A stretch of 52,740 bases of DNA, taken from assembly GCA_008632985.1 (NCBI GenBank), contig QPGO01000094.1:292721-345460 (forward strand), written 5' to 3'. A program made the translations under genes and the position numbers. This DNA is from Psammoneis japonica (Eukaryota). Below the pieces are notes generated by a model, which saw only the letters and a list, made by a program, of their open reading frames with translations, had not been told where the DNA came from and ran no database searches. Below are positions 10,444 to 52,740 of the stretch, in pieces; positions within the stretch are counted from its first letter, which is position 1; every line of letters begins with the position of its first letter.

Positions 10444-10905
10444 ATAGACGAGCGAGTAGCAGCAGTGGTAGTGTAGCTAGAGCGTGTTGTTGTTGAAATG
10501 AGTGGTTCCTGTAAAGTCGTATCGCGTGCTTGTATGATTAAACTATGAATGCAGGGACGGGGTAGTTTTGTTCATTCCAGGTGGACGCTTCTTACTTGTG
10601 ACTCTCTTGTGTGCCGCACGCCTCTAGAGCAAGGTGCCGGATATAGTAGGGCCTTCTAGTCCATTACATCTCACCTGCCGGCAGCCCTACTAGCTCTACT
10701 ATTATACGTGGCGTTATGGAGAGAGGTGGATTCAAAAAAAAATTAATGAATGGAAAAGGTGTTGCTATTCAAAGGAGTTCACATTCGTATGACACGATTC
10801 ATCTCTAAGGTTCGTTGGTCTTTGTTACTTTTTTTATCGGTTTTGTAGGATGTATCTACTTGGGCTTTTAGAGATAGACCTAGCAGCTATGGTGTACAAC
10901 TATCT
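10431..10905 (+). repeat. TA-retaining copy of a ~480-bp segment (MTHFR 3' end and flank) duplicated at ~16118-16600
   Basis: Shared blocks such as gttgttgttgaaa.gagtgg.tcctgtaaagtcgt, gaatgcagggacgggg.agttttgttcattccag, aatgaatggaaaaggtg and gcttttagag. Confidence 0.85.
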
Positions 10906-11762
10906 CGACCTGCAGTACCCTCTAGCTAGAGTAAAGACTGCTAGCAGTGGAGACAGGTGCAGTAGAGTGGAATGACGAAAACAGACGTTCGAAGCGAAGA
11001 TATCATGCTAGCTCGTAATGTCCACTTTCCCACGCACAGAAAGCCCTCAAAGAAAGAGAAATTGCGTGACAACTACGTGGCAGATAGAAGAAAGCAAGCT
11101 CAATTTGCTTTCTCACACTCTCCGCTCGCTCACCACACAAACTCGGCAACGTCGGCTGAAACCAAAAAACATTGAACCTGACGTGATTGCGGCTGCAACA
11201 TTTCGGAAAAGATTGACACCAGAACAGCTTGATCATTTCATTCCACCCCGCACCCCGCCCTTATTTTCATTGGCCAGGGAAACTACCTGGCAGTACGCGC
11301 GCGTGAGAAGTTCACGTGCAACGTCACCCAGTGGCGCGGGGGAAGGGACAGACGCGGGGCAATGGCGGAACGGAGTCGTCATGCAGGCAGGAAAAGGGAT
11401 GGATTTCGAGTTGGGGTTTGATGTTTGCGATTGTAGTTTGGTGGAGTAGCGGGTTAGTTGGTCAGCGAGCGATTTGGTGATCGCGAGGCTCAGGCTCTGT
11501 AGACCCCATTGTGATGGTGTTGAGGAGTGGTGGGTCAGGCCAAAGGAGCACTCGGCAGAGATGGTTTGCCAGGTGGCGGTGGCAGCAGGGAGGATGACAG
11601 ACGGGGATTGTTGGGCGCAGGCGTGTGCAGCATGGGCAGCTGTGGTGGGGGAGAATGTGGTGATGTCATGGTTGCATGGCAGTTCATGTCTCATTCATCA
11701 CATTTTTGCATGAATGTTCTTGCACTCATTTGTGCATTTGCACACAAGTGCCAACAGCAGCA

Positions 11763-13758
11763 GGAAAAATCCTGAACCACATTCTCCCCTAAAACTCTGA
11801 CCACCAAAAACTGAGGGTGCAGAAGCACACTTTTGGCAGCTCTTTTCTCCGCACAAAAAACACGTGTTTTGACCACTCAACCATGACGGTGCCTCGTGGT
11901 TCTTCCCCATCGCCTTCCCAGGATGCCGATCCTGCTGACACCGTTGCTGATGACACTGATGCAACAGGTGATGTCATTGTTCCGGTTCTCATGGGTGTGA
12001 TGCATGCAAAATAAGATGCCACAAACTCACACTGTTGTTTGCATGCTCCACCGCCTCCCACAGATGCCATCACGAATTCCAAAGCCGCGCCTGCATTTCG
12101 GGCCCCCAGCATGCCCGACGCTGTTGCTCCTGTCCTCACTGCCGCAGGTGCTGTTGATGCTGTCATTGTCTTTTGCCAACAACGTCCACAACGAAGTGCC
12201 AACAACTCACACTTCTTTCATTCTCACCCTGACGCCTCCCACAGATGCCATCACAAATTCCAACGCCGCACCTGCGTTTCGGGCCCCTGGCATGCCCGAC
12301 ACTGTCACTCCCACCCTTGCTGCGCAGGTGCTGTTGACACTGTCATTGTCTTTTGCCAACAACACCCACAATGAAGTGCTTGTAACTCACACTTCTTTCA
12401 TTCTCGCCCTGCCGCCTCCCACAGATGCCACCACGAATTCCAATGCCGCACCTGCGTTTCCACCCCCTGGCACGCCCGACACTGTTAATCCCACCCTTGC
12501 TGCTGCAGTTGCTGTTGACACTGTCATTGTTTTTGCTTTGGAAGGAGCACAGTGGATGACGGCAGACCAGGAAACCCACGCAACCATGGCCTGCTGATGG
12601 ACGACACATCAATGGACATGAACAGCGCCTCTTGGTTGGCTCTCGAGTGCAGTCTGATCCTTGGAATGTGCAGACACATCATGTGGCTCCCTGCAAATTA
12701 GAAACCTGACAACAATCAGATGGCAGGCATGCTTTCACAGTTTTTTAGTTTCAAGTTGGAGAGGTCAGTGAATTGGTGTTTGTTTGCAGGCAACTTGGCA
12801 AGGTTTCAAGTGGTGCATGTGACTTGGACACTGCTCTGTTTTCCAGGACTGAGTCATCATGTGCAATTCCACAAGAGGCCACTCTCGCCATTTGAAGTCC
12901 ACACATGATGTGCAACATGCTGTTTTTGTAAGTTGCCAAAATGGAGGCAGGCAGCAACGTGCTTTTGGCAAATGCTTGCCATGTTTGTCGCTGTTGGACC
13001 TTCAAAAGTGGTGCCATGTCAACAGCTGTGCTGCCACTTTGCATGCCGGAACCTTCTGTGCCCGCACTCCATCAGTTGCATCCTCCTTCACATGTTGCTG
13101 CAGTTCATCTTGACACCTGTTGTTGGCTCCGATTGGTTCCACTGGGCTCTGGGTGAGTCTCAATCACCTCCAGATGGAGGAGGTTCTGCTTGGGAATGAT
13201 CATCCTGAGAAAAGTCATCACCACACCTCCCATCATAGATGCTCCTCTGCCATGCCCACGCCCACACAAGGAGCATCGACCAGTGCATCAGTGCTCGTTG
13301 ATCCCATGCCTTTGTTGTTCCAAGCAAAATCACCTCGCTCTGCTGCCACCAGGCCCGGTTGCACCCATGGCAGTCAGAGCACAAGTGGGATTGTTTTGCC
13401 TTGTTGTTGCATTGTGCTTGATTGCAGTGCTCAATGACAAATGGCAGCAATGTCGTCCACGGTCAATTTTAGATCCGGTGAAAATGGGCCCAAACTTCAG
13501 GATCGCAAATCTGCTGTGTTGGGGTTGCAACAGCGGGTTCAACGGCACTGGCCAGTGCAGGAGAGACTGCCATGTCAGGAACAGCAGGTGAGCATGCGTC
13601 AGGTGGTGTGGGGGACAAAGAACGGGAGGTCGTCATGGTCGAGTCGTCAAAACGCGTGATGTTTTGGTGTGTGCACTGTCTTCCAAAAAGTGCGTTTCTG
13701 CACCCTCGGTTTTTGGTGGTCAGAGTTTTGGGGGAGCTGTGGAACAGGAATTTTTGCT
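11763..13758. mobile_element. ~2-kb degenerate element with ~125-bp terminal inverted repeats (MULE/foldback-like)
   Basis: 11763-11888 (ggaaaaatcctgaaccac...aaaactctgaccaccaaaaactgagggtgcagaa...ccatgacg) is an imperfect reverse complement of 13631-13758 (cgtcatgg...ttctgcaccctcggtttttggtggtcagagtttt...caggaatttttg). No TSD and no transposase recognised. Confidence 0.65.
12020..12535 (+). repeat. Tandem repeat, ~180-bp unit x3
   Basis: cagatgcc anchor at 12061, 12242 and 12422; unit ends in ctgtcattgt(c/t)tttgc. Confidence 0.9.
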
Positions 13759-13931
13759 TGTGGAACACACACACACACACATGTGGACATCAACATTGAA
13801 ACTCAATGCACGGTGAAGCCGTGCGCGCGCAACCACGAACACACACACACAGCTCCCCCACCACAGGGGTGATTTCATTCATCACTTTGGGCCTCCTTTT
13901 GAATTGCCAACTGTCTTGCATTGGTTTTGAA

Positions 13932-14222
13932 GTGCATTCAACGGTCCAATGCTTTTACATTGAAAATGTTCATTGATCAATGTTTGCATGTTCCCTTTCC
14001 ACAAAAAGGCCCAGAATTCGCAATCGCGGCCCAGCAAATCGCAGTCGCGGCCCAGTCTCAACGCATTCAACGGTCCAACGCTTTCACATTAAAAATGTTC
14101 ATTGACTGACATTTGCATGTTCATTTTCTACAAAAAGGCCCAGAATTCTCAATCGCGGCCCACCAAATTGCAGTCGCAGCCCAGTCTCAATGCATTCAAC
14201 GGTCCAACGCTTTTACATTAAA
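13932..14222 (+). repeat. Tandem repeat, 129-bp unit x~2.3, with a partial direct copy at ~27831-27910
   Basis: gcattcaacggtccaa at 13934, 14063 and 14192. aaatgttcattga.tgacatttg..tgttcattttct...caatc.cggcccac recurs at 27856-27906. Confidence 0.85.
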
Positions 14223-14316
14223 ATTAGACGCGGCAATCATGATGTTTTCCGTTCGGTTTTGGCTGCACCGACACATGTCCTTTGTCCATCACAACACAAG
14301 CACCTGATGAAACAGT

Positions 14317-16080
14317 CTCTCAAGTGCAATCAGCTTGCATTTCATCACCCACTGCTGCATGGCCGGGTGTTGGTGGCTGCCATGCATTGGCTTTTGATCT
14401 CTCAAACTCGGCCTGAAAAGAAGGGTGCAAAGCATCCGTCAACAGCCCACATCCAAACCCATTGTGGGGTGTTCCCCGGCTTTTGCTGCAACTCAACTTT
14501 AGCTTCCACAGGGCTGTGCGGTCTTTTACTTCCCAACTTCACCAGTCTGAAGCAACGCCAGTCAGCGATGTTGTGAGTTTTGGCTGCCAATCACATGTGG
14601 TTTCATCACGTGTGATGCTGTGCCACTGGGAGATGCAACACCAGAAACTGCACCACCAGCAGATGCTCCAGTGCTCTTGCTTGTTCAGGAACAGCAATGC
14701 TGCAGCCTCCACGATGCCGCAGCCATCATCCCTCATTGCGAGGAGTGCAGAGCCGGAAGTCAAACATGCCGATTTTCTAGAGGGGTTCGGGACCGTCAAA
14801 TTGTTGCTGGGGCAATTGTGTCAACATGACATGGAAGAGAAAATGCCGTTGGCGGACGCTCACTTTTTTGGCAATCTTTGTTTCAGTTTTTTGGCACAAC
14901 AAACACAACATCACCATGATGGGTCGAATCACCACCTCGCCTTGAAACGGATCACTCAACCAACATGAGCAACGCGCTGCCTCAAATGGGGTGACATTGC
15001 CATGTTCCACTTCAGTGATTGCCTTTGCCACCGGCAAAAATGCAGAAATGAGTGACATGAATTTTCAAGATGAACAAACCGCTGAAACCACTTCTTGGCA
15101 AGAAGAAGCACACTGGATGTCCTTTCGACAAGCTGTGAAGCAATTTTCCTCATCTCGCCTGGTGCCGAAAAAGAATTTGATCAACAAACAGCCACAGACG
15201 TGTGACAACATTGCAGTTTCGTCATCGTTGTCAAGGCTGACAAACCAAGCACGAGCATGCCAGCATGACGATGATTTCTCCTTCTTGTCCTTGACACCCA
15301 GCAGCAGCTGCACGGACACCATCATTTCTGCCACTGACTTTTCATCCAAGCAAGAGCATTGTTCATTTGCATCTGAGACCACCAAGTCAAGTCCACTGTC
15401 ATTGGCATCAGATTTGGCAGAAACAAAAATGAGACTCACCCTTGCTCAAGTGGAGTGCAACAAATTGGAGTTTGCCTTGACACAGAACAAGTCAATGTGA
15501 GATGCACCCAAACACCACAGCACAAAGCACATTTTGCAATCCTGACATGGCTTCCCACGAGACTTGTTTTGGAGTGCAGCTTCCTGGAAAACAATGCTGT
15601 TGAGGCCTTTCTTGTTTTGTGTGGATTGCTGGAAAAATGGTGATGCTCCTGCCAGCCACGCAGCTGCGCTTCCTTCTTGCTCAGATGATGCCTCTTTCAG
15701 AACAGAGCATTCATTGACATGCGTCATGGAGGTCCTTGGTTGTTCTTGCTGGATCAGCCAGCACACGGGCAATTCTCCTCAAAGCATTGATTCAAAGCCT
15801 GCTGGCGCAGCGCAGTCCACTTGATGATGCTGCGTGGGATTCATCCAACTTGCGTGCCTGCGCTGTGTTCAAACAAAGTTGTGCTTTCTTCCGACTGCTG
15901 CATCCACAGTGTTTGATCTTGTTTTAACCAGATGGCTTCATTTCCCACAATGACAAAAAAGCTGAGCCAGCAGAAGGCATGGTGGTCTGGCAACGGCAAG
16001 TGAAGAACCGATTGGACGAATCAATGGCAAGTGGCAGATCAGTTTGAAAGCTTTGGCAAAGGCACATGCAAAACGTTCAA
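14317..16080 (+). repeat. Copy 1 of a ~1.8-1.9-kb diverged direct duplication (copy 2 at ~23858-25798)
   Basis: Shared tcagcttgcatttcatca, ctctcaaactcggcctgaaaag, ctcttgcttgttcaggaacagc, aagaatttgatcaacaaacagcc, cagaacaagtcaatgtgaga and atcaatggca.gtggcagatcagttt. Confidence 0.9.
14991..15500 (+). pseudogene. Mutated copy of a small Ser-rich protein with a coiled-coil C terminus (paralog at ~24590-25093)
   Basis: Both copies end ...SPLSLASDLAETKMRL(T/A)LAQVECN(K/E)LEFAL.QNKSM*. Reverting TG/CA to CG gives the more heptad-like AQAERDELEFAL (inference). Confidence 0.55.
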
Positions 16081-16117
16081 GTGCACATCGCAGAGAGCAG
16101 AGCCCAACGTCATGTCC

Positions 16118-16600
16118 AAAGGTGCTCAAGAGAGACAAGCAAGTGATGGCAGCACAGCCAGAGCATGTTGTTGTTGAAACGAGTGGCTCCTGTAAAGTCG
16201 TGTCATGTCATGCTTGCAAGATTAAACTTAGAATGCAGGGACGGGGCAGTTTTGTTCATTCCAGTTGATGCTTCTCATGTGACTGCTGGAGCATGGACAC
16301 TTCTCGTGCAGCTAACAGGAGAGTGTGTTTTCGTGTCATGCTTGTGTGATTAAACTTTGAATGCAAAAAAAGAAAGACTCTCTGTCTCTCTTTCTTGTGT
16401 GTGCTGCATGCTGGCAAGGTGCCGGGCACCATTGTCCATCTCAACCTTGCCTCCATCAGTGCACATGCCATTCTGGAATGAATGGAAAAGGTGCTGCTTT
16501 TTTAAAAAATGGAGTTCATTAGAGTGGCGCTGTTCATCTCTGCGGTTGCACTTGTGCTTTTAGAGTTCAAGACTGGCGGCCAAGCATTTGCAACCAATGG
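16118..16600 (+). repeat. TA/CG-converted copy of 10431-10905
   Basis: Examples: gacgagcgagta->gacaagcaagtg, tagctag->cagccag, gtcgtatc->gtcgtgtc, ggggtagtttt->ggggcagtttt. Confidence 0.85.
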
Positions 16601-19600
16601 CTGTCATGTGCGACTGTCTTGAGCTGGCAGAGACTCACAGGCAGGCACTGCATTCATAGATGCTGAGGGCACGTCCCCATGAAAAGTGCACCCACTTTGA
16701 AAATCTGGTGTCATTCTTTTCGTGCTCTTCACAACATTGTCGGCCAATCAGGGCCCACTCATCACATTGTGGATGACTGCATTTGGTGAGCATTTCATCC
16801 TCAAAATGTCTGCATCCTCAGTCATGATTGATTCTGACTCACATTCCCAGGAGACCTCATCATCCAACCCAACGTAATCCACGCTAAACTGTTCTTCCAG
16901 ACGGTTCTTGGCCATCTTCCACATTGCTCCAACAGTCCTGTCTTTCTTGCGTGCAACCAAGATCAGATGAAAGGGGGGGCAAAAAAGGTTTTGTGCCCAC
17001 ATTGTGTCCATCCACACATCTCCCTCCTTGAAAAAGAGTGCTGGTTTCGGAATCTCCAAGTGGCACTCGTGCATCAATCGCAAAACTTCAGATGGGAGTG
17101 CAGGGACAATGTGTCTCAAGACAAAGGTTTCAGGATTGAAAGCATCACACAGCTGTCATGCTTCTACTGTCATGTTGAAATCGATGCTTTGGAGTTGTTT
17201 CATGTCACATCTGGTCAGGTCGCAAGTGCCCGGCATCCAGCGCACCGCTCCATGCTCTGCAACAACTTTTAGATTGCCAAAATGAGTGAATGACAAGAGG
17301 GCGTGTTCTGGCAAATGTGGTGTGTCAACAAAGAGTTTCCCGACCCCCTCTTTGTCACAGAACAATGGAGGCAAGCCATCAACACCACCCAGATGAGTTG
17401 GCACATTTGTCTCATCCAATTGTTTCTGAATGAAAGTTGCACATGCATGTCCGTGACCACATGAGATGCAATTGTGCTTCTGTCTCTGCCAATCTGACCA
17501 TGAAGACGAATCCTCTCGACTTTTTCATCATTGCCATCATTTCTGCTTTCAGGGACAATGGCATCAAAAACCACAGTCCCCAGTGCATGACGATGACTGG
17601 CATCACTGACACGATCATGCCTGGAAAAAGGACAAATCGACGCACTGCAGATCAAATCATGCATTCCTTTCAAGTCCTCAGGACGCAGCATCCTGAGCAA
17701 ACACCAAGCCCGGCTCTGGAAGACCAAAAAACTCAATCATTCATTCCTCTGTGAACGGCAAACCAGTGAGACTGGGGCACTGGCAACCCAAGCTTCGTGA
17801 TTGTTCACAGCAATGCATGCACTCCGTGTCCAACATTCTTGCTTGCTCCACTCCACGACTGATGACACCAACTCTTTTGTGTCATGCCCTCTGCCAATCC
17901 CTCATTTCTGTTGCCGGGAATTCTCTGCAACTGCATCAAACACAGCAAACAACCAATTCCATGTTGCTGATTCACGTCCATTGGAGGCGCACATTGTGGA
18001 ACAGCAAAACCACAACAACTTCTGCACAGGCACGCAGAGATGCACCCGGGCTAGATTTTCTCTCTTGATTGTGTCACGCCTGAAAGCAAACTGAATTGAC
18101 AAAGAAGAGTCACACAGTTCTGGCACCGTACAGTGGCACAGCAAGGAGCGACAAGCTTGAGCAATCTCTGCTCCTGCGATGGCTCCATGGTGCATGCCGG
18201 CACAGCAGAGCAAGAGAAGTCAAAAACTTGCACCAAAAAAGCATGAGGGAGGATGGGCTGGTGCACTGCACACAAATGGTGCTTGCTTCTGACAAAGGGC
18301 CATCTCCCATGATTGATTTGGACTGTGCAGCACCTCAGCAGAGACAATGTCAGCAGGACCCAACTGCAAAAAAGCAAGAACTTGTTTTTGCACAAATGAG
18401 GAAAGTGAACGTGACAACCACAACAACAGCTGATGTTTGATGTTGCTTTTCTTCCCACAGCACTCACCAGCCAGCCAGAGGCTCCTGATTTCCATGTGGC
18501 AGAGGCAGATTTGAAAAATTCTTGAGAAGGACCACACCCCTCCACCAATCTCCCTTCCAGCATCCCTTGGCACCTTTGCATCTTGCTCATGGAAGGGGGG
18601 GGAGGCAACTTGCAAAGTCTGGCAACCAAGACAGTGTTGCTTGCTTGCCTTGTTTTTCAGCCCAGGCAAAATGAGATGCACAGCACACAAGCTGCTTTTG
18701 CAAGCACAGCTGCCAGAGCCAATGCTGGGCTGAACATGTGCTGGTGTGTTGGCCCCCTTTTGTCTGTCATTGTTCACTCACAATGATGATGATGACACAC
18801 GATGACACACACTGCCCTCTCTCCTCTTCACTTGTGCTTGGTGGCCCAGCAGCACCTGTTTAGAGCTTCAAACAGAAATCTGTTGTGACAGCAAGTTGCT
18901 CAAAGGTGAAGGAGTGATGTGTGTGCAATTGCCAGCAACACATCATGTCTGAAGAGAGAGAGGGGGTTGTTGGCCGGCCAGACATCATGTGGCCACTTGC
19001 ACATGTGACGGAGAAGACACACCACTTCACACACCAGCCAATTGGATTTCTTTGCCCACAAAGTTCTCTCAAAAGGACTCAGACTGGAGATGACTTTTTG
19101 CCAAAAAAAAGAGTGAATGGAATGGCAGCTTTGTCTTTGGTGTTTGGTTTTGCTCCCATGCCTTTTCTTGGCATTTGTTTGACTGCACAAAGTCACTCAA
19201 AACCCCAAAGCTTTGGTGGGAAGAGAAGTCATTTTCATTGGCAACACAAGGCCTCTGAGTGAAAATTCTTCCTTTTGATTGTTTTGATCTGTGGCAGCCT
19301 TGATTGTTGAGCCCAGCTTCTTTTTTTTTTTGCCTTTTTTGACAGAACAAACTTGCTGCTTGCTTCTCACAAAATTCCTGGACAATCTTCAGCTGTGGCA
19401 AGAACAAGTCATTTTGGCAAAACAAAGCCTCCAAGCAAAAAAATTCTTTCAGTGGCCTTTGGTTGCCATGTTGAGTTTCCATTCTTTGTTGTGCCCACTC
19501 AACTGCACATGCTTGTCACTTGCTCCTGAACAAATCTGAGAAAATCATTTTACAGTTTGACCCACAGCAGCCTTTGATTGCTGCACTGAGCTTCCCTGTC

Positions 19601-20810
19601 TCATTTTGGCACTTGCCAAACCCGGCAGTTCTTCTTTTGGAAAAACAAGTTGAAAAACAGTGTGCATGTCTGCATCAAAATTCTTCTTGGATGTTTTGAT
19701 CTGCAGCAGCCTTTGGTTGTTGTGTTGAGTTTCCATGTTTTTTGCAACACTCACTTCTTGACTGCATGACTTGTGGCTTCCCAGAGCTGAGGATTGAAAT
19801 TGTCCCACAACCCCTCAACTCAGAAGAAGTTTGTCTTTCAACCACATTGAGTGCATGTTATGGTCTGCCTTTTGTGCAGAAATGTGATGCACTGCTCTGC
19901 TCTGCTCCTGCATGTGCATCACATTCCAAAGAGCTTGTCATTTTCAAAATGAGTTGATCCTCCTGCAGAGTCTTGTCAAGCTCCAGTTGCAGGTTTGTTC
20001 AAGATGGACAATTCTTGTGAAGGATCTTCTTTCTCTTTCTCTCTTGCAATGTGGTGCTGCACACTGGCACAGTGCTGGGTGCAGCAGGGCCCTGTCACAA
20101 CTTGCCTGGCTGCGCTGGCACTCATGTCATTCTGAACAGAGCTGGGCACTCAGAAACCAAAAAATGAACAAATGGAAAAAGAGTTGATGTTGTCAAAGGA
20201 GTTTGCTTGCATGGCACAATTTGTCTCTGAGGTTCATTGCTTTTTTTGTCAGAATGTTGCTGATTTTGCAGGATGCCACACTCACTTGTTGGGCTTCTGC
20301 TGGAGGCAGAACCCAAGTGGCTTTGATGTGCAGGAGTCATCTTGAGCTGCTGGCACAGAGCAGAAGCTGCAAACAGGGAGACTGCTGCAGCCAGCTTGAT
20401 GAAAGCAGAGCAATGGGGACAGACACTGGAAGTCATGCAGCATTTGTTCCATCTGCAGTTAAAGAGAAATTGTGTGGCAACTGCCCCAAATGTTGGAAGA
20501 GACTGTGTGACACCAGAAAAAAGGACACACTCAAGCTGCTTTAATTCTTTCCACCTGCACAACAACAACAAAAAATCATCCAACAACACTGAAACAAAAA
20601 GTGACAAGGTGACTGTGGCATTTTCTTCTTGGTTTCAGCCAACATGCACATCCTTTGTGTCCATCCCAATTTTTCAGCATTGCAAAACAGCACCAACAGG
20701 ATCTTTTGGGGCTGGGGCTGTCCCATGTTCCATGTGTCTTTGAAGCTGCAACTGTCACAGTGTCCTTTGCACTGTGTTGTTCCAAGCTGTTGCAGTCTGC
20801 TTTTGTCAAT

Positions 20811-20970
20811 GCAGAAGCAACATGCAGCCCCACAGCTGTCATCACCATGTTGTCCTCTCTTGTCTTTGTGATCATCATGATCAATGTGGGCAAAAAGCAA
20901 CACACAGCCACACAGCTGTCATCACAACCATGCTGCCTTCTCTTGTCTTTGTGAACATCATGATCAACAT
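20811..20970 (+). repeat. ~80-bp tandem duplication
   Basis: gca(g/a)aagcaaca..cagcc.cacagctgtcatcac...tctcttgtctttgtga.catcatgatcaa occurs twice. Confidence 0.8.
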
Positions 20971-23857
20971 TGATTGCTGACTGCAACTTGGTCGGAGTTG
21001 TGATTTGTCACAGAAGAGCATGCACAGCTGGCTTGATGCTGCTCTTTGGCTCAGCTGTGTTGCATTTTGCCACAAGATCTCAACACAGCTGCCATCACAA
21101 CATTCTTGGTGCTTCTCTGTTGGGCTTGCCAGGAGTGTGCACAAAGCTCATGGACACATGCATTTGCTCATCAAGTGGCAGAGCTTTCCAGGTGTTGCTT
21201 TGAATTTGGTCTGGTTGTCTGTGTCACTGAGTCTCCCACCTGGAGAGCAAAGTCTGTCTCTTCTTTGTCAACAGTTCAAGCCATTCTTACAAAAGTGCAC
21301 ATGGCTTGCTGTTTTCATGTTCCAGGAAACCACGAAGCATGTTGGCTGGACATGCATTGTTTTTTTGTTCAAGCATGTTGACAGGACAAGAGCTGTCATC
21401 TTCTTCTTGTTCAACAAATGATTTTGTGATGTCACAGGCCTCATGGGATTTTTCTTGCATCTCATCATGTTGGGAGTGGCGCTGGCATTTTGCATTTGTG
21501 TGCACAGGACGGGGTGGATCGAACTTGTCAGCAACCAAGGGCAATCTGTCTTTCCTCACCAATGGTCATGTCAAGAAGCTTTTGAAGGCACCAACATCTG
21601 CTGAACTCAAGAAGGGTCAGTGTGCATGTTGCCACGACCATCAAAATTGACACATTCAGGGCAAAAATTTTAAAAGTTTGTTTCAATGATGACCGTGCCC
21701 CTTTTGCAATGTAAAAAAGAGCAGCGCACACAAGCAGCAAATGACTGGTGACCACCTTTTTCAGATGCTTCAAGTTTTTCAGTGATGTCTGTGATGGTGA
21801 TCCCTGGGGCACAACTTGTGAGATTCTGAAAGTGTGTGCTGTTGCTTGAAGTCTTGTGACAGAAGCAGGATGCCACCAAGATGTCAGACTGGGGAGGATT
21901 GCTGAGTGCATTGTTGCAGATGTGGTTGTGGGGTGTCTGGGTTCATTCTTTGTTTGATGGTTGCTGTCCAAGCAGCTCCATTCAAGCAAAATTGGGGGCA
22001 TGGATGGCAGCACTTTTTTGAACAAGAGTTTCAAGACAATGCTGACTGTCAAGCTCAAGCTTGTGTTGGCTGCACATGTGAGCCAAATTGACTCACCCAA
22101 ACTCAGCCCCCCACATTGTGGTGGAATTGCAAATGAAGTTGCTTCAAAGCTTGCCAGTGCAAAAAGAGAACCTTTTTTTAAAACCAAGATGTGCAAGAAT
22201 GATGGCCCCCAGACAGTTGGTGGAAAGAATTGAAGCCAGGCAGGACTTGTTCTTCTGCTGCTCATTTTGTGTGTTGAATGTTCAAGAACATTGGTGTCTT
22301 TTGCAAAATGCATGTTGGGTTGATTTGTCATTGCACTGGTCTTCTCCATCTCATGGCACAATGGTTTTGCTTGAACAAAGTTGGGGCTGCTTTTTAGCAC
22401 CAGCAGTGCCCACTCATGCCATCCCCTCTTTGAGTTGTTCACAGTTGTCACAATGCTGCAGACAGTTTTTTTGCCCTCTGGATGCCAGCTGGGCAGTGCA
22501 GAGAGCAGACCAACATTGACTTTGACTCATTGGAGACAATGTGACAACCAAACTGTTGCATCTTCCTGGTGCAAAAAGCAACAGACCATGAGAACAAACA
22601 GATGTTTTGATGAACATTTTGGCATTGTTGCTTGAAGCACAATTGTGGATTAAGAAGCACCCACAGCTCTCAGTTCTGGTTGAAGACATTGCAGCACCTG
22701 TCCAAACCTGTGTTCTCACAAGGCAACATCTTGTGTCTCTGCAAGGAGAGCTCTCACAAAAGCCATGCCACTGCTCATCCAAAGGCTTGTTTCAAGAAGA
22801 TTTTTTCTGTGGCTTGGGCTGCATCAGCCTCCTTGACATCAGAGGAGTTTGAGAGGTTCTGTGAGGGGATCTTTTCTGTCTTGGGAAGTGGGTGGGTTCA
22901 TGCTTTTGACATTTGAAGGATTCTGGCTTGATTGCATCACTTGAGACCTGCAGGAGGTCTCACAACGTGGCATCCTGCCACCACAACACAAATGTTGGTG
23001 TCAAGTGCCTTGAGCAGCAGCACATGTGCTGCTGCCACTGAGACACAGAGATGTCCTGCCATCATGGCAAGAGTTGCTTTGAATCAATTGCATTTGCCCA
23101 CAATGATGGAGAATGCCAGCTGTGGTGTTGTGCTGGTTCTTTTCCTTGTGGTGCATCTGACTCCCCCTTTCAGTGCACACTGAGCTGTCATTCTGAGGGC
23201 ATCCAAAATGCCTTGACAGTCAAAGCAGCCAACATTGATGGGAGCTCTGCAGGCTTTTGTGTTTGTTGCAATTGTGGTGGCAATGGGTTGTCTCTCAGTT
23301 GTTGCTCTTGTCATCCATTTTCTTGTGGTTCAATTTGTTGTTGAAAAGTGGTGCTGGAGGTGGCCAAAGCCTCTTGAGAATAAGAACATCGATGCTTTGC
23401 ACAGGGAGCAGAAAGAGAATTGGACATCAACAAAAAAGCAAACTCGATGTGTGCAAGCCCTGCATCCCCAATTTTGCAGGTGCACACTCTTGCACCCATC
23501 ATCATCCAAGGGAGGTTTGGCAACAATTGAGAAGTTGTTTGAATTCTCAATGGCATTTTCTGGCATTTGGCTCTGACTGCACAAAAAGCAAATCATCACA
23601 TTGGCGGTGGTGTGGTTTCTTCTGCCCAAGGTCATGAGCATGATTTGGAGCGACAGTGTCTTCTGTGCTGGCTTGATGTGCTTGTAAAATGGCAAACAGT
23701 TGATGTCTTTGCCTTGATCATTTCTCTTGAATCTGCTCTTTGCATGTCGTCCATTGAGAAAGCCCGGAGCCTGGATGTGGCATTTCTTGTTTGCTGGGAC
23801 CTGATCATGGCTGGCCCCAATGTGAGGTTTGCATGCCAATGCAACTGTTCACCCAAT

Positions 23858-25798
23858 CTCTCAAGTCAGCTTGCATTTCATCATCTGCTGTGCTGCAACT
23901 GGGTGGTTGCTGCCACATCGGCTTGCTGCTGAGCTCTCTCAAACTCGGCCTGAAAAGGACAAACCCATTGGCCCATGCTCCACGTCCGAATCTAATGTGT
24001 GGTGTTCCCCAGCCCTTGTGACAATTTGAGCTCAGCTTTTGCAGGACTGTGTGGTCTTTCACTTCCCAAGTTCTCTAGTCTGAAGTGATGCCAAGCTTCC
24101 ACCTCTTGTGAGTTGTTGCTGCTTTGCCAGAATCACACACGTGGCATGTCACACAATGTGATGCTGGATGCTGTGCCACTGGGACATGCAACACTGGATG
24201 CTGTGTTGCTGGCAGATGCTCTCGGGCTCTTGCTTGTTCAGGAACAGCGACGTTGCGGCCTCCACGATGCCGCAGCCAGCCATCATCCATCATCATCATG
24301 ATGCTGCACACAGCACTGTAGAGCTGGAGCACAGAGTTGCGCACAGACTCTCTCTGCCAGAGAGCCGGTGCTGATTTTCAGGAGGGGTTTGGGACCGTTA
24401 AATTGTCACTGGGGCAATTGTGTGCAGTGTGATGTTGAAGAGAACACCATTGTTGGACGCTCACTTTTTTTGACTTTTTTGGCATTTTTTTGTTTTGCAA
24501 CAACCAACACATCCACAATGATGGGACGAATTACCACCTCATCTTGCAACGACTTGCTTGACCAATGTGAGAGACGTGCTGTCTCAAACATGACATTGTT
24601 GCATCCCACTTCAGTGTGCACCGGCACATTTGCTGCCAACAATGCGGAAATGAATGACGTGAATCCACACAATGATCAAACCGAGACCACTTCTTGGCAA
24701 AAAGAAGCGCACTGCATGTCTTTTCGACAAGCTGCAAAGCATTTTGTCTCATCTTGCCAAGCACCAAAGAAGAATTTGATCAACAAACAGCCGCCGACAT
24801 GTGATGACATTTCAGTTTTGTCATCGTCATTGTCAAGGCTGACAAACCAAGAATGCCAGCATGATGATGAATTCTCCTTGTTGTCCTTGACACCCAGTGG
24901 CAGCTGCACAGACTCCATCATTTCCACCACAGACTTCTCATCCCAGCAAGGCTGTCATTCGTTTGCATCTGAAACCAAGTCGAGTCCACTGTCATTGGCA
25001 TCTGATTTGGCAGAAACGAAAATGAGGCTTGCCCTTGCTCAAGTGGAATGCAACGAATTGGAGTTTGCCTTGATGCAGAACAAGTCAATGTGAGACAGGG
25101 CCACACCTGAATGTTGTGACAAAGCGGGTTTTGCAATTCTGACATGGCCTCTCACGAGACTAGATTGTGAGTGTAGCTTCCTGAATGACACCGCCGACAA
25201 GGCCTTTCTCATTCATTGTGGATCGCTGGAAAGAAGAACAGCGACACTCTTGCCAGCTGCGCAGCTGCACTTCTTTCTTGCTCAGATGGTGTCTCCTTCT
25301 GAACAGAGCATTCATGCATCATGGAGGCCCGCCGCCATTCTTGCTGGATCAGCCAGCACATGGGCAATTCTCCTTGCAGCATTGATTCAAGGCCCGCAGT
25401 CCACTTGATGATGCTGGTGCAGAACCTGTCCAACATGCACCAGCTTTGCAATGCCCGCATCTTTGGTTGGCTTCACGTGCCGGCACAGAGTTCAACAAAG
25501 TCAGGCTTTCTTGAACTGTCAGTGATGCACCGACTGCCGTGTCCACAATGTTTGATCTTGCTTCAACCAGACACCTTCTTTAAACACAATCGACAAGAAC
25601 AAAGTTGAGCATCTACAGCGCTTCTTGATCTTGCCTCAACTGCGGTGGATGCCTTCTTTGATCACAACTGACAACAAAATGGCTGAGTCATGAGAAGGTG
25701 TGGTGGTCTGGCAAGGGTGAGTGGAAGACCGATTGGATGAATCAATGGCAGGTGGCAGATCAGTTTCAAAGCTTCAGCAAAGGCGCATGCAAAACGTT
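23858..25798 (+). repeat. Copy 2 of the 14317-16080 duplication
   Basis: Same shared blocks as copy 1, including the 24368-25093 ORF. Confidence 0.9.
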
Positions 25799-27442
25799 TG
25801 ACTCTGCGCTGCACATGCCACAATGAAGTGTTGAACATCAGTGTGTCTTTCCTGCAATGCCGGGAGCATTGCAGGCATCACTGCACTTCACTTCCAAAGA
25901 AGGTTTTTTTGGAACAGCATTTTCTGACTTGGTCTTCACAAGAACCCGACCTTGTGTCTTTTTTTGCTTTGAACGTGTTTTGGAACTTAGAAAGACGAAT
26001 TAGAACCAATGCTCTGTGAGCTTTGTTGCCATTGTTGTTGAGCAGTGCTGCTGTCACCTCAGCCGTGCAAAATGGGTTTTTGCTTTGTTGCCGCCAAAGC
26101 AATGTGCCAACCAGAACATCCTTCCACAACCCAAGCCCACAACAACGAAGGCCACCAAAACCACACTGACATCTCCAGCTCTCATTGAAACCTTTTCCGC
26201 ATGGCCCAAAAATGTGACAAAACAAAATCAGGTGCCATGACCACACAGCCTTTCTGCCGGCATGTCCTGGAGAGCATGTGAGCAGCATCGACACAGTGTG
26301 ACCCCACTCGAAGTCTGCCAGCCACTTCCTGAATTCGTCTGCAATCATTTGCTGGTGTCGCTTGTCTTGAGTCAAGGCCAAATCCATGTCGCTCTCCTCA
26401 GCTGCTGCTGCCTTCAGTTCAAACCTTTGAACTGGTTGCAGACACAAACTGGTGCATCACGAAAGCAAACAAACCTCCCGCTCCCTCTGTGAAATCCACC
26501 GACAAAACAATTGCAGGATTTCCTCAATGACAATGCCGCACTGTGTGCAACAGATGCTTTGGACGCACCATGCTGTTCAACATCTCTGGAGCCACAATTG
26601 GGGTGAGACACAGTTGACGACGCCAATGGCGAGGCAACATTGTTGATGAACCATCCCATCCTCTGTGCTTCCGTGCTGCACAGACACAAGTTCCTGGTCT
26701 CCTCCATGCCCTCATTGGTTCACTCTTCCACAAAGCTTGCTTGCTTCTCGAGACGGGTTCCAGTCCTGGGTGGGACTCCGTGCGACATTGGGCCCGTGGA
26801 ATTCTGCGTGCAAGCTCCACAGCAAATTTGTGCTGCAATGAAAACACAAATGATCGCCAATGGAAAAAGAGGCAATTTTACAAACGCATCTCCTTCTTCA
26901 TGCTTGGAGTGCATCATCAACAGTTTGCCCGGGTGTGTTCTCCAGACTTTAAAGAACACACCCAGCGCATTTTCATTCTCGCAAATGATGAAAACAGAAA
27001 GCCTTTGGCTTCGCAAAACAGGGAGCATGAAACAATTTCATAGAATGCAACACGCAGAAATGTGCGTGCGCGACATGCGACGTGATCCAAAAAACTGTTG
27101 ATGTCACAGTGCAGCAGCACGAGGTCCCACCCAGAGCTGGAGCGCGTCTCGAGTTGACTTGTTCAAGATGCTGTGTGTTCAGTTGCACGATGACTGCACA
27201 CTGCTGCATGGCTTGCCACTTGCTGCTTGTTGTTTGTTTTGTGTTTTTTGTCTTGCCATTGGCCATCGCCATTGCACATCGCAGCGGCAACACGGCAAAC
27301 AACACCCAAGACCGGCGGGGGAGATTCTCTCCCTGGCGCTCGGGAAAATGAATGTTGTCGTCACATGTCAGCAAAAGAATTTCATTCGTGCATGGCTGGG
27401 GGGAGCATTTCTCTCACCTTGCCCCACCCCGTCGCATCTCTT

Positions 27443-27662
27443 CACATTGTGGGGGGCATCTTTGGAAGTGAGATCGTCGAAGGCGGTCTGATCGCCAGCG
27501 CATTTGGGGGTTTTCCCAGTGCATTTTGTGCACGCCAGAGAACACATGGGATCTGTCCAGAGATCACAAATGCCCAATCGCACTGATTGACAGACTGTTC
27601 CAGTGCAAATTCCATGCAACTTTCTTCGACAGTCTCACTTCCGAAGACGTCCCCCAATTGTG
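27443..27662. mobile_element. ~220-bp MITE-like element with ~38-bp imperfect inverted termini
   Basis: cacattgtggggggcatctttggaagtgagatcgtcgaa (27443-27481) versus the reverse complement of 27625-27662, cacaattgggggacgtcttcggaagtgagactgtcgaa. Confidence 0.6.
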
Positions 27663-28111
27663 ACCATGCGGCATCCCATGGCCCATGGGACAAGTGCAAA
27701 TCAAAACACACACACACACAACACCAACAACACAACCTCGTGAAAACGGTTGCACACTGAATGACCTGCATTGCGGTCGTTGAGCTCCTCGTCAAAGCTC
27801 AATGCATTCTTCCTCTAATGTTGGGAAAAATCAACGCATCCAACGCTTCTACCGTAAATGTTCATTGATTGACATTTGTGTGTTCATTTTCTCAATCACG
27901 GCCCACAATTACACAGCGGTTTGCGCGAGAGAACGGTGAGCGTGTTTGTCTGTGTAAAAATTAATCGGGTGCGTCATAAATGTTAGGAATTAGGAATTTG
28001 TTAAACGGAAGATCTATGAAAAATGCACGGTATCACCGCACAAAAATATTTTCTTTCTCAGAACGGCCATCAAGATGAGGTGACGAACGCGAACTGCATT
28101 TCATGTAATCC

Positions 28112-28192
28112 ACCCAGACCCAGGAAAAAATGAGATATGTTGTTCTTCATGGTGTTATTGAGGTAATATGTCATTATTTCCTGGGTCTGGGT
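28112..28192. repeat. Inverted repeat with 27-bp arms (2 mismatches) and a ~27-nt loop
   Basis: acccagacccaggaaaaaatgagatat ... atatgtcattatttcctgggtctgggt. Confidence 0.85.
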
Positions 28193-47854: not shown

Positions 47855-50180
47855 ATGAGGCTATTGTTTCTTGCTTTGACTGCCCATGTGGCTCATTCGG
47901 TTTCGACAAGCGGACCTGTCAAGCAAGCGTCGGCTCGTCGAAGAGCTCAATCACAACGTCGACAGCAAGTCATGAAGAAGAGTCAAGCACGAAATTACAG
48001 ATTACTGTCTTCGGAAGAGATTCGCAATCGCCTACTGGAGTGGAAAGATTCGTATCCAGACTTGTGTCACGTCACCACCTCTCAGGAAGCTTATGGACTC
48101 CCAGCTGCCGGTGATGCTTCGGATTGTCCCTTTGACGATGGGCCGGGATGTAAGAATTACATATTGACTATCCAAGACTTTGTCGCCCACCCCGAGGGAT
48201 CCGATTCTTCGAATAGGTTACCCGAAGTTTTCCTAAGTGGCCTTTTACATGGCAACGAGAGGGTTGGACCAACGGCTGTGGTAGAGTCTGCAACTCTTCT
48301 TCTCGAAGCTGCTTCCTGTGAAGCCAAGCCAAACTTGTCCAAGAAACCAACCTCAGATGATTCGAGTCTGGCCTGGGAAAAGGAATTAGCTCAAGCGCAC
48401 GCATGCCGTGAATCTCTACGCATCAATAAAGGTGTAGATGACAAACATCGAAAGTGGCTTGCCCGATTAGTCACAACACGAAGAATCGTAATCGTGCCGA
48501 CTTCGAATGCGCTGGGTTATTACAGAGACGAACGGGAAGAAGACGGAGTCGACCCAAACAGGGACTTTCCCTATGATTTGAAAAATCCTAAAAAGTGCAT
48601 GCAGTCCATTGCCGCGCGCACCCTGAATGAGATTTTCCGCGAGCACATGTTTCAATTGAGTCTGACCTTTCATGGAGGTACGTACTTGTTGTCATTTGAT
48701 CAAGAAGCGAAAATCGATTTTGTGATTGATGCTCATTGTTCTTTTCATTTTTTAACAACAAGGCATGGAGGTGGTTGCGTACGAATGGGGCGCACCTACA
48801 TATCTAAACTTTTTAAGTCCAGACGACGAAGCTCAAAGCCAAATTGCACACGCGTACAGTCAATACGGCGGTGGGTGGCCAGGCACAAGGTCCTATGATG
48901 TGGGCACCATGAACGATTTGGTGTATTATGTTCGCGGAGGATTTGAGGATTTTGCTTATGCGGGATCGTGGGACCCCGACCGTGTCATACCCTGCACCCC
49001 AACCACCTTTGGCGGGTACGACCGCAAAAAGACAATATACAACAAGTCCACTTTGCGTGTGTTCAATATGCTAATTGAAACAAGCGACGACAAGAATCCG
49101 CCGAGCCAGATACTGGGTACTAGTTTAGATGTGTTGGATGCCGACACGACAGGAAACGGACACGTGTCGCGCAACATTCGCCTTTCCCTTTTAGCGGCGG
49201 AAATGGTTGAACCCTACGTTTCTTTGCTTGGAACTGACGACTTGTTGCTGACGGATGATGTAGTCCCACTTGGTGATCGTGGAGACAAGGTATGTCAGGA
49301 CATTAAAACAATCATGATTTCAAAAGATACAAAAGAGACAACAGTTTATTGGACGGTGGGTGGATCAATGACGATTGACGACACATCCGTTTGGTACGGC
49401 AAGTGGGATGACCTGCCCCACGATTCATCTATTGGTTGTATGGGGCAGCCAGATGTGAATGTTGTACAAAAGTCACTCAACAAGGGTACTCCAATCACCA
49501 GTCAAAAAGGATCTGGAAGGTTTTCAAAAGATGGAGCGCAGCCCAGCACCGAGCTAGGAACGAACAACTCTTCCCAGCTCGGTCCAGTCTTTGCTGCTAC
49601 CATTGACACGTCTCAATTTCAGCCACACGACCGAATCGTTGTTATTGCAGTAGCCCGCGTCGACCAAACATGGAAGAACCAGCCAGATGATATCTCACCA
49701 AATATTCCACCACAAAGTCATATTGTGAATGCTAGAACAAATCCTGACTGGAAACATAAGAGCGCTGGAAAGATTCTGCAAGGAAGACTCGATTGGTATT
49801 CCATTCCACTTACGGTTGTTATAGGTGATGGCATTGGGCATGAAGTGGGTGCATTCGAAGTCTCAAACAGACTTATTGCTATTGACTCAGACATTGTGGA
49901 CGTAGTAGACCAGGGGTCGCCAGTGGATGACGTTAAAAGTGATGATGCAACGGATTCAGGTTGGTCGCAGGGTGGCATTATACTCGTTGCACTATCATTT
50001 ACGGGATTCGCATGCATTATACTCGTCAAGAAACGGCGAAGATTCCGGCATCGTCCTTTGGTAGTGAGCGAGTATGAGGAGGGGTATTTTGAGGGTGCGA
50101 AACAGTACACCGACAAAGTCGATGATGAGAATGGCGAAAAGAATGAGGCGGGAGATTTAGAGCTAATGGAATACGCATAA
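47855..50180 (+). CDS. Secreted/membrane-anchored zinc carboxypeptidase (M14 family)
   Basis: Signal peptide; GLLHGNERVG (HxxE), DPNRDFPYD, LTFHGG; intron 48678-48762; C-terminal TM GGIILVALSFTGFACIILV followed by KKRRR. Confidence 0.88.
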
Positions 50181-50259
50181 TTTTTAGATTGCGTCATTTC
50201 ATGTCTATGGTCACTCTCTAGAGAGGGCGAGAGTTTGTAACATCTGGTAGAATTTAGAT

Positions 50260-52317
50260 GAAAAGGAAAAAAGAGCCCAAAGAGCCAATTGCAACAACTT
50301 CCAACGAGCAATCGTGCAACTCACAGGAACAATGTGTCACTTGACTGACGTTCAATCGTGTGACACAAGTGCAAGCACCGCCCTGTCATTTTTTCCTGTG
50401 AACATCCAAAGATTTGCTCAGAGCCGGTCTTTTTCTTTGTTGGCTGTGCCGCTGCAGTGAGATGATGTTTTGTCATCAATTCATGACCCCCGTGTCCCAC
50501 CAGCATGCTTTTTTTTGTTCAGCAGTGGTGAAAGAGCTCTTTCCTGTTTTTTCATCCTTTCACCCCCCACGGGCACTGTTTCTAAGTTGGGGTGACTCAA
50601 GATTTTGGCTTGAGCACACTTTGGTGCTGATGTTGGGGCTCTCAGTCTGGTGGCTTTCTTGGCTGCAGCAACAGTGTTCATTTTTTGGGTTCTCACCATG
50701 GCAGACAGCCAAGTTGCAGCAAATGTGGGCTTCTGTTTGTTGCCTGGGAAGAGGCTGCATTTGCAGCCCTCTCCAGACTGTTTGAGCCATGCTGGGTGAC
50801 AGGATTTGAACAAGATTTTAGTTTGTCACACACAATTGTGTGTGCTCTCAGTTCCGCACGCGTCGCGCGATGCAGTTTGCTTTCGAGCCACCGGCTCACA
50901 AGAATGATGACAGCAGTGCCGACATCACGACACCAGTCTTTCGGCTCCTGTGATGGTCTCTGCATGGAGACTCATCTGCTGTTTGGACAGCAGCAAGGAG
51001 TTGTTGTTTTCTTCCACCCAGTCATCTTCATTTTCTGTCAGATCAACAGTCTCGCTCATTCTCACCCACTGAGCATTCATCATCGTCATCGAGAAATTTT
51101 CGACGACGCGCACGGTTGGCGGTGGAAGTGTGTGTCCACCTTCTTCGCTGCTGGATGCTGGATTAAATCTGTGCATTTGGATTCATCCAATGCCTCCCAT
51201 CGTTGGACACATTTGTTCAACGGACATTTGTTTGGTCAGGAATTCCCAAATTCTCAGACATCCGAGATTCCGGATTCCTCATGGCAGATTCTGCCCTGGT
51301 TGGCAGACAGACCAATCCAAACGCTCACGTCCACGCGCACACGACACAAACCCTTGACTCTGGCTCCGCTCCAAGCATGCCAAGTCTGCTGCCTTGCATC
51401 CACACTGGATTGCTGGTCTTCTGCAGTCCTGCAAGGTCCACCAGGACAACTGTGAGAGGAAGCAGTTCATGATTGCAGCCTGCGTTGGGGCGAGGGTGCC
51501 TTTCCCACATTTGTTTGTCCCTCCACAGTGCCAAATTTGGCAGGCCTGATTGGGTTGTCCAACTCATGTAAAATGAGAACAGTTTGGGGGTCTTGTCCAC
51601 CTCTGGCTGGCTTGTCAGCAGGGGTTTTTAACCTGTTGCTCCATTCTCAAGCAACCCAAAATGCCGCTGGCTGCAGGTTCGGACGTGCTGGCACAACTCC
51701 GTGGACCGGATGGGAAGCTTGGCACTTGACTGCAAACGGGAAGCTTGGCACTCAACTGCAAACGGGGTGTCACAGCCTGGCGGCTTCTGACTCTTGAGAT
51801 GGTTCAAGACTTCAAGCCAAGATTCAAGTCAAGTTTCAAGTCATTTCAAACTCACCCTCCGACTCCAGCTGGTTCCGACATCCACCAGTTGCAACATGGT
51901 TCTCACCAGGCAACAACAAATTGATGGCCTTGAGCACATTCTAGGTGCTGTTCTGAGTCAAGCCACAGACAGTCCATTGTGCTCTGCCCTCAACATTGAC
52001 AGAACCGACTCGCATCAGGACCTTTTCACATTTGCTCCGATGCAACTGGATGCCCTTGTGTGTGATGATGGCACCAATCAAGTGCCCTTGCCACATGGTT
52101 GCAAAGCACAGATGGCTGCACTGATTGGCCTGCACATGGCGAAAGCACGCGGCAGCGCTGATGTCAGCAACAACCCTCAATTGTTCACACACGAGGAGTT
52201 CACCAACTGTCGTCTTAGTCCTGAGCATGTGGCGTCCCTCTCCATGGGCACAGCACCATCTGCTCCCACTCCTGGCTCATTGCCACCCAAACCACGTGAT
52301 CCCGTGCGTGACTTTAA
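50260..52317. other. Second TpA-depleted repeat domain
   Basis: Hand count of 8 TA dinucleotides in ~2.06 kb, 7 of them in TTA/TAA context. TA is common immediately outside both edges. Confidence 0.92.
51451..52317 (+). mobile_element. Truncated Ty1/Copia (CoDi-like) LTR retrotransposon: candidate 5' LTR 51451-51774 plus gag N terminus 51896-52317
   Basis: TGTGA...TCACA inverted termini; caagtttcaag-rich leader; gag-like MVLTR..LEHIL..VL....DSPL..AL...DL...FTHEEF..RLSP...DPVRDFK, broken after DFK. Family recognised by eye. Confidence 0.65.
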
Positions 52318-52324
52318 GGCACGT

Positions 52325-52401
52325 TCCCACCCTGATAATTTCGGCCGTAAAATAAATATAATTTGGCCAAATTTACGTATTTACGGGCGTCAGGCTGGGA
52401 A
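52325..52401. repeat. Imperfect AT-rich hairpin at the gag truncation point
   Basis: ttcccaccctga...ccgtaaaata...aatttggccaaatt (palindrome)...tatttacgg...tcaggctgggaa. Confidence 0.6.
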
Positions 52402-52740
52402 TGAATTCGAACAGGAAAAAAGATCAAAATCACACGTCGAGCTCGGTGAGGACGCTACTACAGCCAGAGCTGCTCTAGTACGGTAGCTAGAGACACCATT
52501 CTGGATATTATGTAGTTGAGATCACTAACCTTGTTAGTGACAATCGTTGTCCATTTTGCGATTGCTCTACACTCGAGACTCATGATAACACCAGTGATCG
52601 TCAGAAGAAAAGCATCCAATCCACGGGCATGAGGTGCAGAGAGAGCAGAAAGACAAACAATCGCAAGCAGTGCGACTACAGCATTCATCAATACTAAATG
52701 AAATTTCTACAGCATATACGGTTCTAAAAGTACTAGACTT

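Follow-up and report, generated by a model that had tools for sequence, protein, structure and literature searches.

The TA dinucleotides that survive in two TpA-erased domains of a 52,740-nucleotide stretch of Psammoneis japonica DNA (referred to as the window, meaning the whole stretch analysed) followed a graded one-strand rule, T-A-Y with extra protection by an A two places beyond, and this rule is a better account of the survivors than a duplex VTAB target. It is likely the fingerprint of an A-to-G enzyme that acts on one strand at a time, and not of a symmetric double-strand mark. In the reading we favor, to which we give a probability of roughly 60%, a host enzyme would act on each strand separately in silenced mobile DNA and convert the A of TpA to a base that is copied as G.

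Two TpA-erased domains

The window was gene-dense, and a Pfam scan of its frames revealed, among others, valyl-tRNA synthetase, peroxin-3, MTHFR, a PI3/4-kinase and Hsp90; among the best matches of this Hsp90, those with a name came from diatoms. In the two domains D1 and D2 (Table 1), the observed/expected ratio (O/E) of TA was 0.01-0.16 in kilobase bins lying fully within them, compared to 0.40-0.80 in gene-bearing kilobase bins. This TA loss was matched by a gain of TG and CA, and it was restricted to repeat-rich blocks while the genes were spared. Across the edges of D2, TA O/E changed from 0.69 (49500-50256) to 0.03-0.13 within the domain and then to 0.90 just beyond it.

Table 1. Positions of the domains, repeats and surviving TA steps in the window.
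Feature	Position	Strand	Remarks
TA-rich repeat copy	10466-10960	+	relatives in D1 at 16147-16660 and 20020-20400
Domain D1	11501-27815		61 TA; degraded repeats; source of most statistics
Domain D2	50257-52317		8 TA in 2061 bases; both edges sharp
Low-copy part of D2	50257-50795		TA-erased; 1 TA; O/E 0.03
Surviving TA of D2	50583, 50819, 51164, 51569, 51629, 51942, 52216, 52315		
High-copy repeat upstream of gag	50796-51895	+	summed contig depth in thousands from the 50759 bin
N-terminal part of copia-type gag	51896-52317	+	cut off at 52317
TA-rich repeat interrupting gag	52318-52740		TA O/E 0.90, CG O/E 1.02; directly after TAA 52315-52317

CpG was also depleted in D1 and D2, with an O/E of 0.02 to 0.83 block by block. 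Since the extent of this CpG loss varied across blocks while TA was low throughout, CpG decay is a separate process. At 18000-23500, CpG O/E was 0.02-0.17, compared to about 0.4-0.8 in the remainder of D1, with TA equally low, and this stretch may be a nested block of other age or methylation history.

Scanning the D1 frames against Pfam yielded no convincing match, and neither a transposon domain within D1 or D2 nor a deaminase gene turned up among the 25 and 64 window frames scanned. D1 did contain a 2-kb element (11784-13736) bounded by 51-base terminal inverted repeats, inside which lay a 180-base tandem array. Adjoining this element was a 129-base tandem array (13934-14223), of which an extra copy was located at the far D1 edge (27839-27910). 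Just beyond D1, at 28112-28192, lay a 27-base inverted repeat that was 93% complementary around a 27-base spacer.

Judged by its coding remnant, D2 is presumably a dead copia-type retrotransposon. Its gag piece had 12 alignable relatives at E<=0.001, and the alignment of gag relatives led to locus L001, which carries a 1870-aa ORF with the copia-type reverse transcriptase domain RVT_2. A word-based search with the gag piece gave no match, and the 12 relatives gave no Pfam match and, among the 8 looked up, no useful name; we take the element to be of the kind labelled CoDi-type among diatom Ty1/copia elements. The high-copy repeat upstream of gag is likely the 5′ part of the retrotransposon (LTR and leader, unmapped), and loose contig ends were seen just before 50796/50797. 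No LTR pair was found in the window, in which gag is cut off before the window ends at 52740.

The left edge of D2 was located about 80 bases past a gene's stop, and the low-copy DNA that follows it was as TA-free as the adjoining repeat. Depth over 50411-50758 was 48, stemming from a single contig of run X1. Erased low-copy DNA next to a retrotransposon suggests either spreading or homology-independent targeting. On the right, the TA-rich repeat is likely a younger insertion, so that this edge of D2 would be that of a later insertion. A contig from run X2 shared 52317-52364 behind another flank that also ended in TWA (TTA), a target typical of PIF/Harbinger elements; run X2 covered just these 48 bases and run X3 next to none. 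Transposons targeting TWA would find target sites among exactly the words spared by the mutator.

Translated to 52324, the D2 gag had no Tyr in 143 residues. In a 36-row gag alignment (38 of 78 loci offered; L025, L028 and L073 dropped for stops), only its H111 and A82 stood in columns with >=30% Tyr, while by eye its C56, C69, C105 and H111 faced Tyr in 8, 4, 5 and 4 of the 12 relatives, respectively. With so few Tyr-rich columns at D2 gag positions, Tyr loss in the window itself is weak evidence.

Flanks of the surviving TA steps

An earlier sequence-only reading had listed eight residual TA in D2 together with their flanks, and all eight matched exactly. It had also pointed out a 5′ T or a 3′ A at seven of these eight, a configuration found at 517 of 1317 TA outside the domains (39%; P(>=7 of 8)=0.0075), and it had claimed the same bias for the 11.5-28 kb domain. 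The counts for D1 and D2 together bore this out (55/69 versus 517/1317 outside; Fisher p 3.7e-11), and uniform depletion over the 10 strand-folded NTAN classes was rejected (deviance 80-118 on 9 df). A sharper description of the survivors was Y-TA-R, which applied to 7/8 in D2 and to 43/69 in D1 and D2, compared to 240/1317 outside.

Homopolymer composition did not account for this bias: after dropping TA within TTTA/TAAA, a 5′ T or 3′ A was still present at 20/34 versus 352/1152 (p 0.001), and Y-TA-R at 17/34 versus 177/1152 outside (p 4e-6). These filtered counts leave out the edge site 52315, which is located at the junction with the TA-rich insertion.

The same signature was found beyond the window. 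Among 78 metagenome loci with a related gag, four had a 500-base stretch with TA O/E <=0.12, namely L005, L036 and the identically overlapping L061/L062, and none of these four matched the window at the DNA level. Between 1461 and 2426 of L036, six TA were left, of which 6/6 were Y-TA and 5/6 Y-TA-R, and a single Tyr remained in 350 codons. Conserved Tyr of this gag had become Cys at 4 and His at 1 position after a pyrimidine, and Cys at 2 and His at 3 positions after a purine, counts that are too few for significance alone. The L036 gag (1377-2426) lies on a sediment metagenome contig, and its erasure begins within the gene.

The copia-type gag-pol of locus L005 (821-3516) spans 898 codons, contains 2 stops and has kept 19 Tyr. 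It had no NTA among 172 NTN codons, compared to 16-41 NTA in three relatives, and only 5 T|A codon junctions, compared to 37-58 in those relatives. From its codons, L005 looks like a case of TA erasure filtered by protein selection, in which the element would stay functional under the mutator. Because of this filtering, and because the TG/CA outcomes were mixed when it was aligned with relatives of 64-70% identity, L005 was left out of the evidence for the strand rule.

We consider it extremely improbable that the pattern is an artefact of assembly, base calling or homopolymer composition. T runs were indeed commoner inside the domains (TTT 30.9 versus 22.4 per kb), and three T in 50580-50583 (at 50580, 50581 and 50583) read C in the sole run X1 contig over 50362-50822, which leaves one of the eight D2 TA unconfirmed; these differences may reflect an allele, a strain difference or an assembly error. 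That 461-base contig nevertheless has just 4 differences from the window, none of which brings a TA back, and the depletion over 50362-50822 is therefore no assembly artefact. Moreover, the flank bias persists without run-adjacent sites, and L036, which has no DNA match to the window, has the same Y-TA survivors.

Survival differed strongly among tetramers. Compared to the numbers expected from the outside rate, D1 and D2 together retained 18 TTAA (30 expected), 20 CTAA+TTAG (62), 14 GTAA+TTAC (94), 5 CTAG (41), 5 CTAC+GTAG (105), 3 ATAG+CTAT (77), 3 ATAA+TTAT (99), 1 GTAC (64), and neither ATAC+GTAT (98) nor ATAT (56). In the models fitted to these counts, expected numbers were taken from three baselines (all outside DNA, genes, and the rest), all of which represent host DNA and not the unmutated elements.

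The earlier reading had proposed that a single flanking T or A protects a TA, and hence that the target is a duplex motif of roughly VTAB. Its view of a flank-dependent, enzyme-driven process affecting both strands held up, but the duplex VTAB symmetric mark did not. ATAA/TTAT have one such flank, yet their depletion equalled that of VTAB sites; CTAG, itself a VTAB site, survived better. The VTAB model predicted about 19 ATAA+TTAT and 1.3 CTAG survivors, and its deviance was 48-63 on 8 df (p<=1e-7 under the three baselines). Also rejected on the survivor counts were the uniform model, the three-level VTAB model, a model in which both flanks are needed, and one in which either flank protects (p<=2e-6 under three baselines).

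In contrast, a product of independent per-strand survivals fitted well with each of the three baselines (deviance 4.4-4.9 on 6 df, p about 0.6), with survival on each strand depending on the base after the A: 0.81 for A, 0.38 for G, 0.15 for C and 0.046 for T. An A at +2 gave a further 3.3-fold protection per strand (LRT p 1.4e-11; 33 classes, 68/69 TA, fit p 0.14). This +2 effect was present in TAA, TAC and TAG separately, and TAGA and TACA are not runs.

Because TA is self-complementary, a one-strand rule by itself yields mirror-image flanks. A duplex rate composed as f(left) x f(right) fitted the survivors as well (deviance 3.5-7.7 on 6 df). Since both multiplicative models fit, survivor counts alone cannot part independent strands from a duplex rate, which the products of the change can do.

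Strand and direction of the change

The TG products pointed to the strand on which the change occurs. Relative to outside DNA, TGC was 1.99x and TGT 1.66x as frequent inside the domains, compared to 1.24x for TGA and 1.35x for TGG. At hot/cold sites, where the two strands read TAY and TAR, respectively, TG was in excess on the TAY strand, with an odds ratio of 1.38 (1.23-1.55) versus all outside DNA, 1.48 versus genes and 1.28 (1.10-1.47) versus the remaining outside DNA, while hot/hot and cold/cold controls gave 1.00-1.01. Forward prediction from the 3′ rule yielded chi2(6) values of 3.0-12.2, and a rule based on the 5′ neighbour was rejected on the products (chi2(6) 63-94).

Block by block, the odds ratio was 1.68-1.97 at 19.5-23.5 kb and 1.04-1.24 at 11.5-15.5 kb. 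As it peaked where CpG loss was deepest, CpG decay may contribute to the TG excess. The C..T class nevertheless exceeded 1.3 in 5/5 blocks under all three baselines. For D2 alone the odds ratio was 1.17-1.39 (p 0.025-0.29), which is non-significant under two of the three baselines.

These products bear on the proposal of an enzyme that recognises the tetramer as a duplex and marks its two strands symmetrically, the mark decaying later in the manner of methylated CpG. Such a mark was expected to leave equal TG and CA, but an even split was rejected under the three baselines (chi2(6) 20.7-36.0, p 3e-6 to 2e-3), as was the VTAB form, with CpG decay as a possible confounder of the split. The symmetric adenine mark 6mA set by AMT1 occurs, according to the accessible part of the source, at ApT within VATB, is lowest at TAT and is not accompanied by dinucleotide depletion (PMC12695648). 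Here, TAT was the most depleted trinucleotide inside the domains (0.02), while AAT stood at 0.90 and CAT at 1.37, a pattern that does not fit AMT1 6mA. On the other hand, the multiplicative duplex model fits the survivors as well as the per-strand model does, a symmetric mark would still be compatible with the data if the 3′ neighbour governed its decay, and TG/CA differences between copies lacked strand runs: 29 TG/CA-discordant sites formed 14 runs, compared to 15.0 expected. A survivor-skew test for strand clusters gave p values of 0.08-0.94. Such clusters would be expected of a deaminase working on single-stranded DNA, and their absence counts against the one-strand reading, although repeated episodes would blur them. 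On balance, we hold a symmetric mark to be decidedly unlikely.

The direction of the change could be read from the TA-rich repeat copy upstream of D1, since its comparison with the D1 relatives indicates that TA became CA or TG. Among 11 site comparisons in these directed pairs (equal flanks, local identity >=60%), seven had become TG/CA, two had kept TA (GTAAA and TTAAA) and two had changed otherwise. The hot/cold sites among them were altered on the TAY strand in 3/3 cases, too few for significance alone. In other D2 copies, hot/cold site 52034 fits the TAY rule and 51401 contradicts it (among 40 of 388 difference rows).

Comparison of D1 repeat copies with each other yielded 13 TA-versus-CA/TG differences, and in 12/13 the partner was CA on the + strand. 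All 4/4 Y-TA-C sites faced Y-CA-C and none Y-TG-C, which is contrary to the rule if TA is ancestral; some TA may have been regained by C-to-T change, or a local strand bias may override the flank rule. More generally, some survivors might be new TA that arose by later C-to-T change in Y-CA, in which case erasure would be less context-dependent than it appears. Such regain would be in line with TCG/CGA being the CpG context depleted most (0.31), and with the CA that the sole contig covering 50583 has in place of TA. However, TTAT/ATAA would then return like TTAA, yet 3/617 of the former compared to 18/291 of the latter are present, so that a loss rule is still required. In addition, a steady state between loss and uniform gain fitted worse (deviance 13.5, p 0.036), and the GTAAA and TTAAA survivors are common to a TA-rich copy. 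That the flank bias partly reflects where TA was regained is, in our view, very unlikely.

Candidate mechanism and known systems

Under the favored reading of a host enzyme acting on each strand separately, the A of TpA in silenced mobile DNA would be changed to G, most rapidly before T or C, more slowly before G and most slowly before A, while an A two places on would slow the change further. Once one strand has changed, the site would no longer be a TA. The chemistry could be adenine deamination to inosine, which is copied as G, and the enzyme a TadA/ADAT-like one that acts in silenced chromatin while the DNA is transiently unpaired. The process may serve as host defence. The proposal of such an enzyme stems from this chemistry and from the match to the preference of ABE7.10, and by this analogy a TadA/ADAT-like DNA adenine deaminase is our best guess for the candidate. 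We more tentatively suggest, at somewhat less than even odds, that diatoms might possess a natural adenine base editor with the ABE-like rule T-A-Y-(not A), which would work on silenced transposon chromatin in more than one lineage (L036) and be so strong that some copia elements lost all silent TA of their reading frame yet kept their tyrosines (L005).

Alternatively, the lesion might be on thymine, with the T of R-TA being modified or oxidised (of the 5-hydroxymethyl- or 5-formyluracil type) and mispairing with G, as oxidised thymines do. A-to-G in TAY equals T-to-C in RTA on the other strand, and all counts thus fit both readings equally. The TA core with its following pyrimidine nevertheless matches a known adenine deaminase preference, while no T-modifying enzyme that follows an RTA rule is known to us, and we regard a thymine lesion as unlikely.

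In fungal RIP, C:G is changed to T:A at CpA, which makes TA from CA. The process described here resembles RIP in that dinucleotide-specific transitions occur across repeats on both strands while genes are spared. It differs in that TA is lost and CA/TG gained, and in that the low-copy part of D2 is affected as well. The loss of TA with a gain of CA/TG rules out RIP itself. With CpG decay under 5mC, for which the accessible text of PMC9998398 describes the diatom DNMT5, it shares a self-complementary dinucleotide.

For deamination of A in DNA by a natural eukaryotic enzyme, amphioxus ADAT2/3 offers a precedent, its ADAT2 being, as stated in the accessible text, the sole natural ADAT2 for which this was shown (PMC10354150). 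Unlike the TAY found here, amphioxus ADAT2 prefers GAA, TCG and hairpin loops, and no anti-transposon role of ADAT2/3 is shown in the accessible part of that report (PMC10354150).

The closest parallel is found in Bigelowiella natans, in which A:T to G:C hypermutation restricted to TpA was measured in integrated NCLDV and virophage DNA (Mettrop et al., 10.64898/2026.01.13.699255); according to the accessible text, an adenine deaminase was proposed there but not shown (10.64898/2026.01.13.699255). Both systems display A:T to G:C change at TpA, yielding TG as well as CA, in foreign or mobile DNA and with long-term TpA loss accompanied by a gain of CpA/TpG. B. natans, however, is a rhizarian alga with viral inserts and a mild depletion (O/E 0.45; 10.64898/2026.01.13.699255), whereas the present case concerns transposon relics of a diatom, an O/E of 0.01-0.16 and a rule reaching beyond the dinucleotide. 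The main text of that report does not contain the terms 'context', 'flank', 'trinucleotide' or 'diatom', though a supplementary table may hold flanks (10.64898/2026.01.13.699255). No report of TpA hypermutation in a diatom was found in the literature covered, from which subscription papers were mostly absent; term look-up in the accessible text of 10.1101/2025.10.24.684338 gave no such report, and the accessible parts of PMC2806351, PMC13674456 and 10.64898/2026.08.24.746577 contained nothing on such a process.

A natural A-to-G DNA mutator directed against mobile DNA is so far known from the single report on Bigelowiella, an unrelated alga, in which the enzyme is not named. A strand-resolved rule extending two bases past TA is what any candidate enzyme must reproduce in vitro. 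It narrows the search by favouring one-strand chemistry over a symmetric mark of the CpG kind, and other genomes could be screened for this signature at little cost.

In its flank preference the rule comes close to that of the TadA-derived laboratory editor ABE7.10, which, as far as the accessible text describes it, favours YAY and disfavours AAA (PMC10188366). Both involve A-to-G change on one DNA strand, favoured by a 5′ T and a 3′ pyrimidine and disfavoured by a 3′ A, a match for which a thymine lesion would give identical counts. ABE7.10 differs in being engineered and Cas9-guided and in also editing after C (PMC10188366), while CA is the stable product here. Should the enzyme prove to be a deaminase, the engineered adenine base editors would have a natural counterpart in it.
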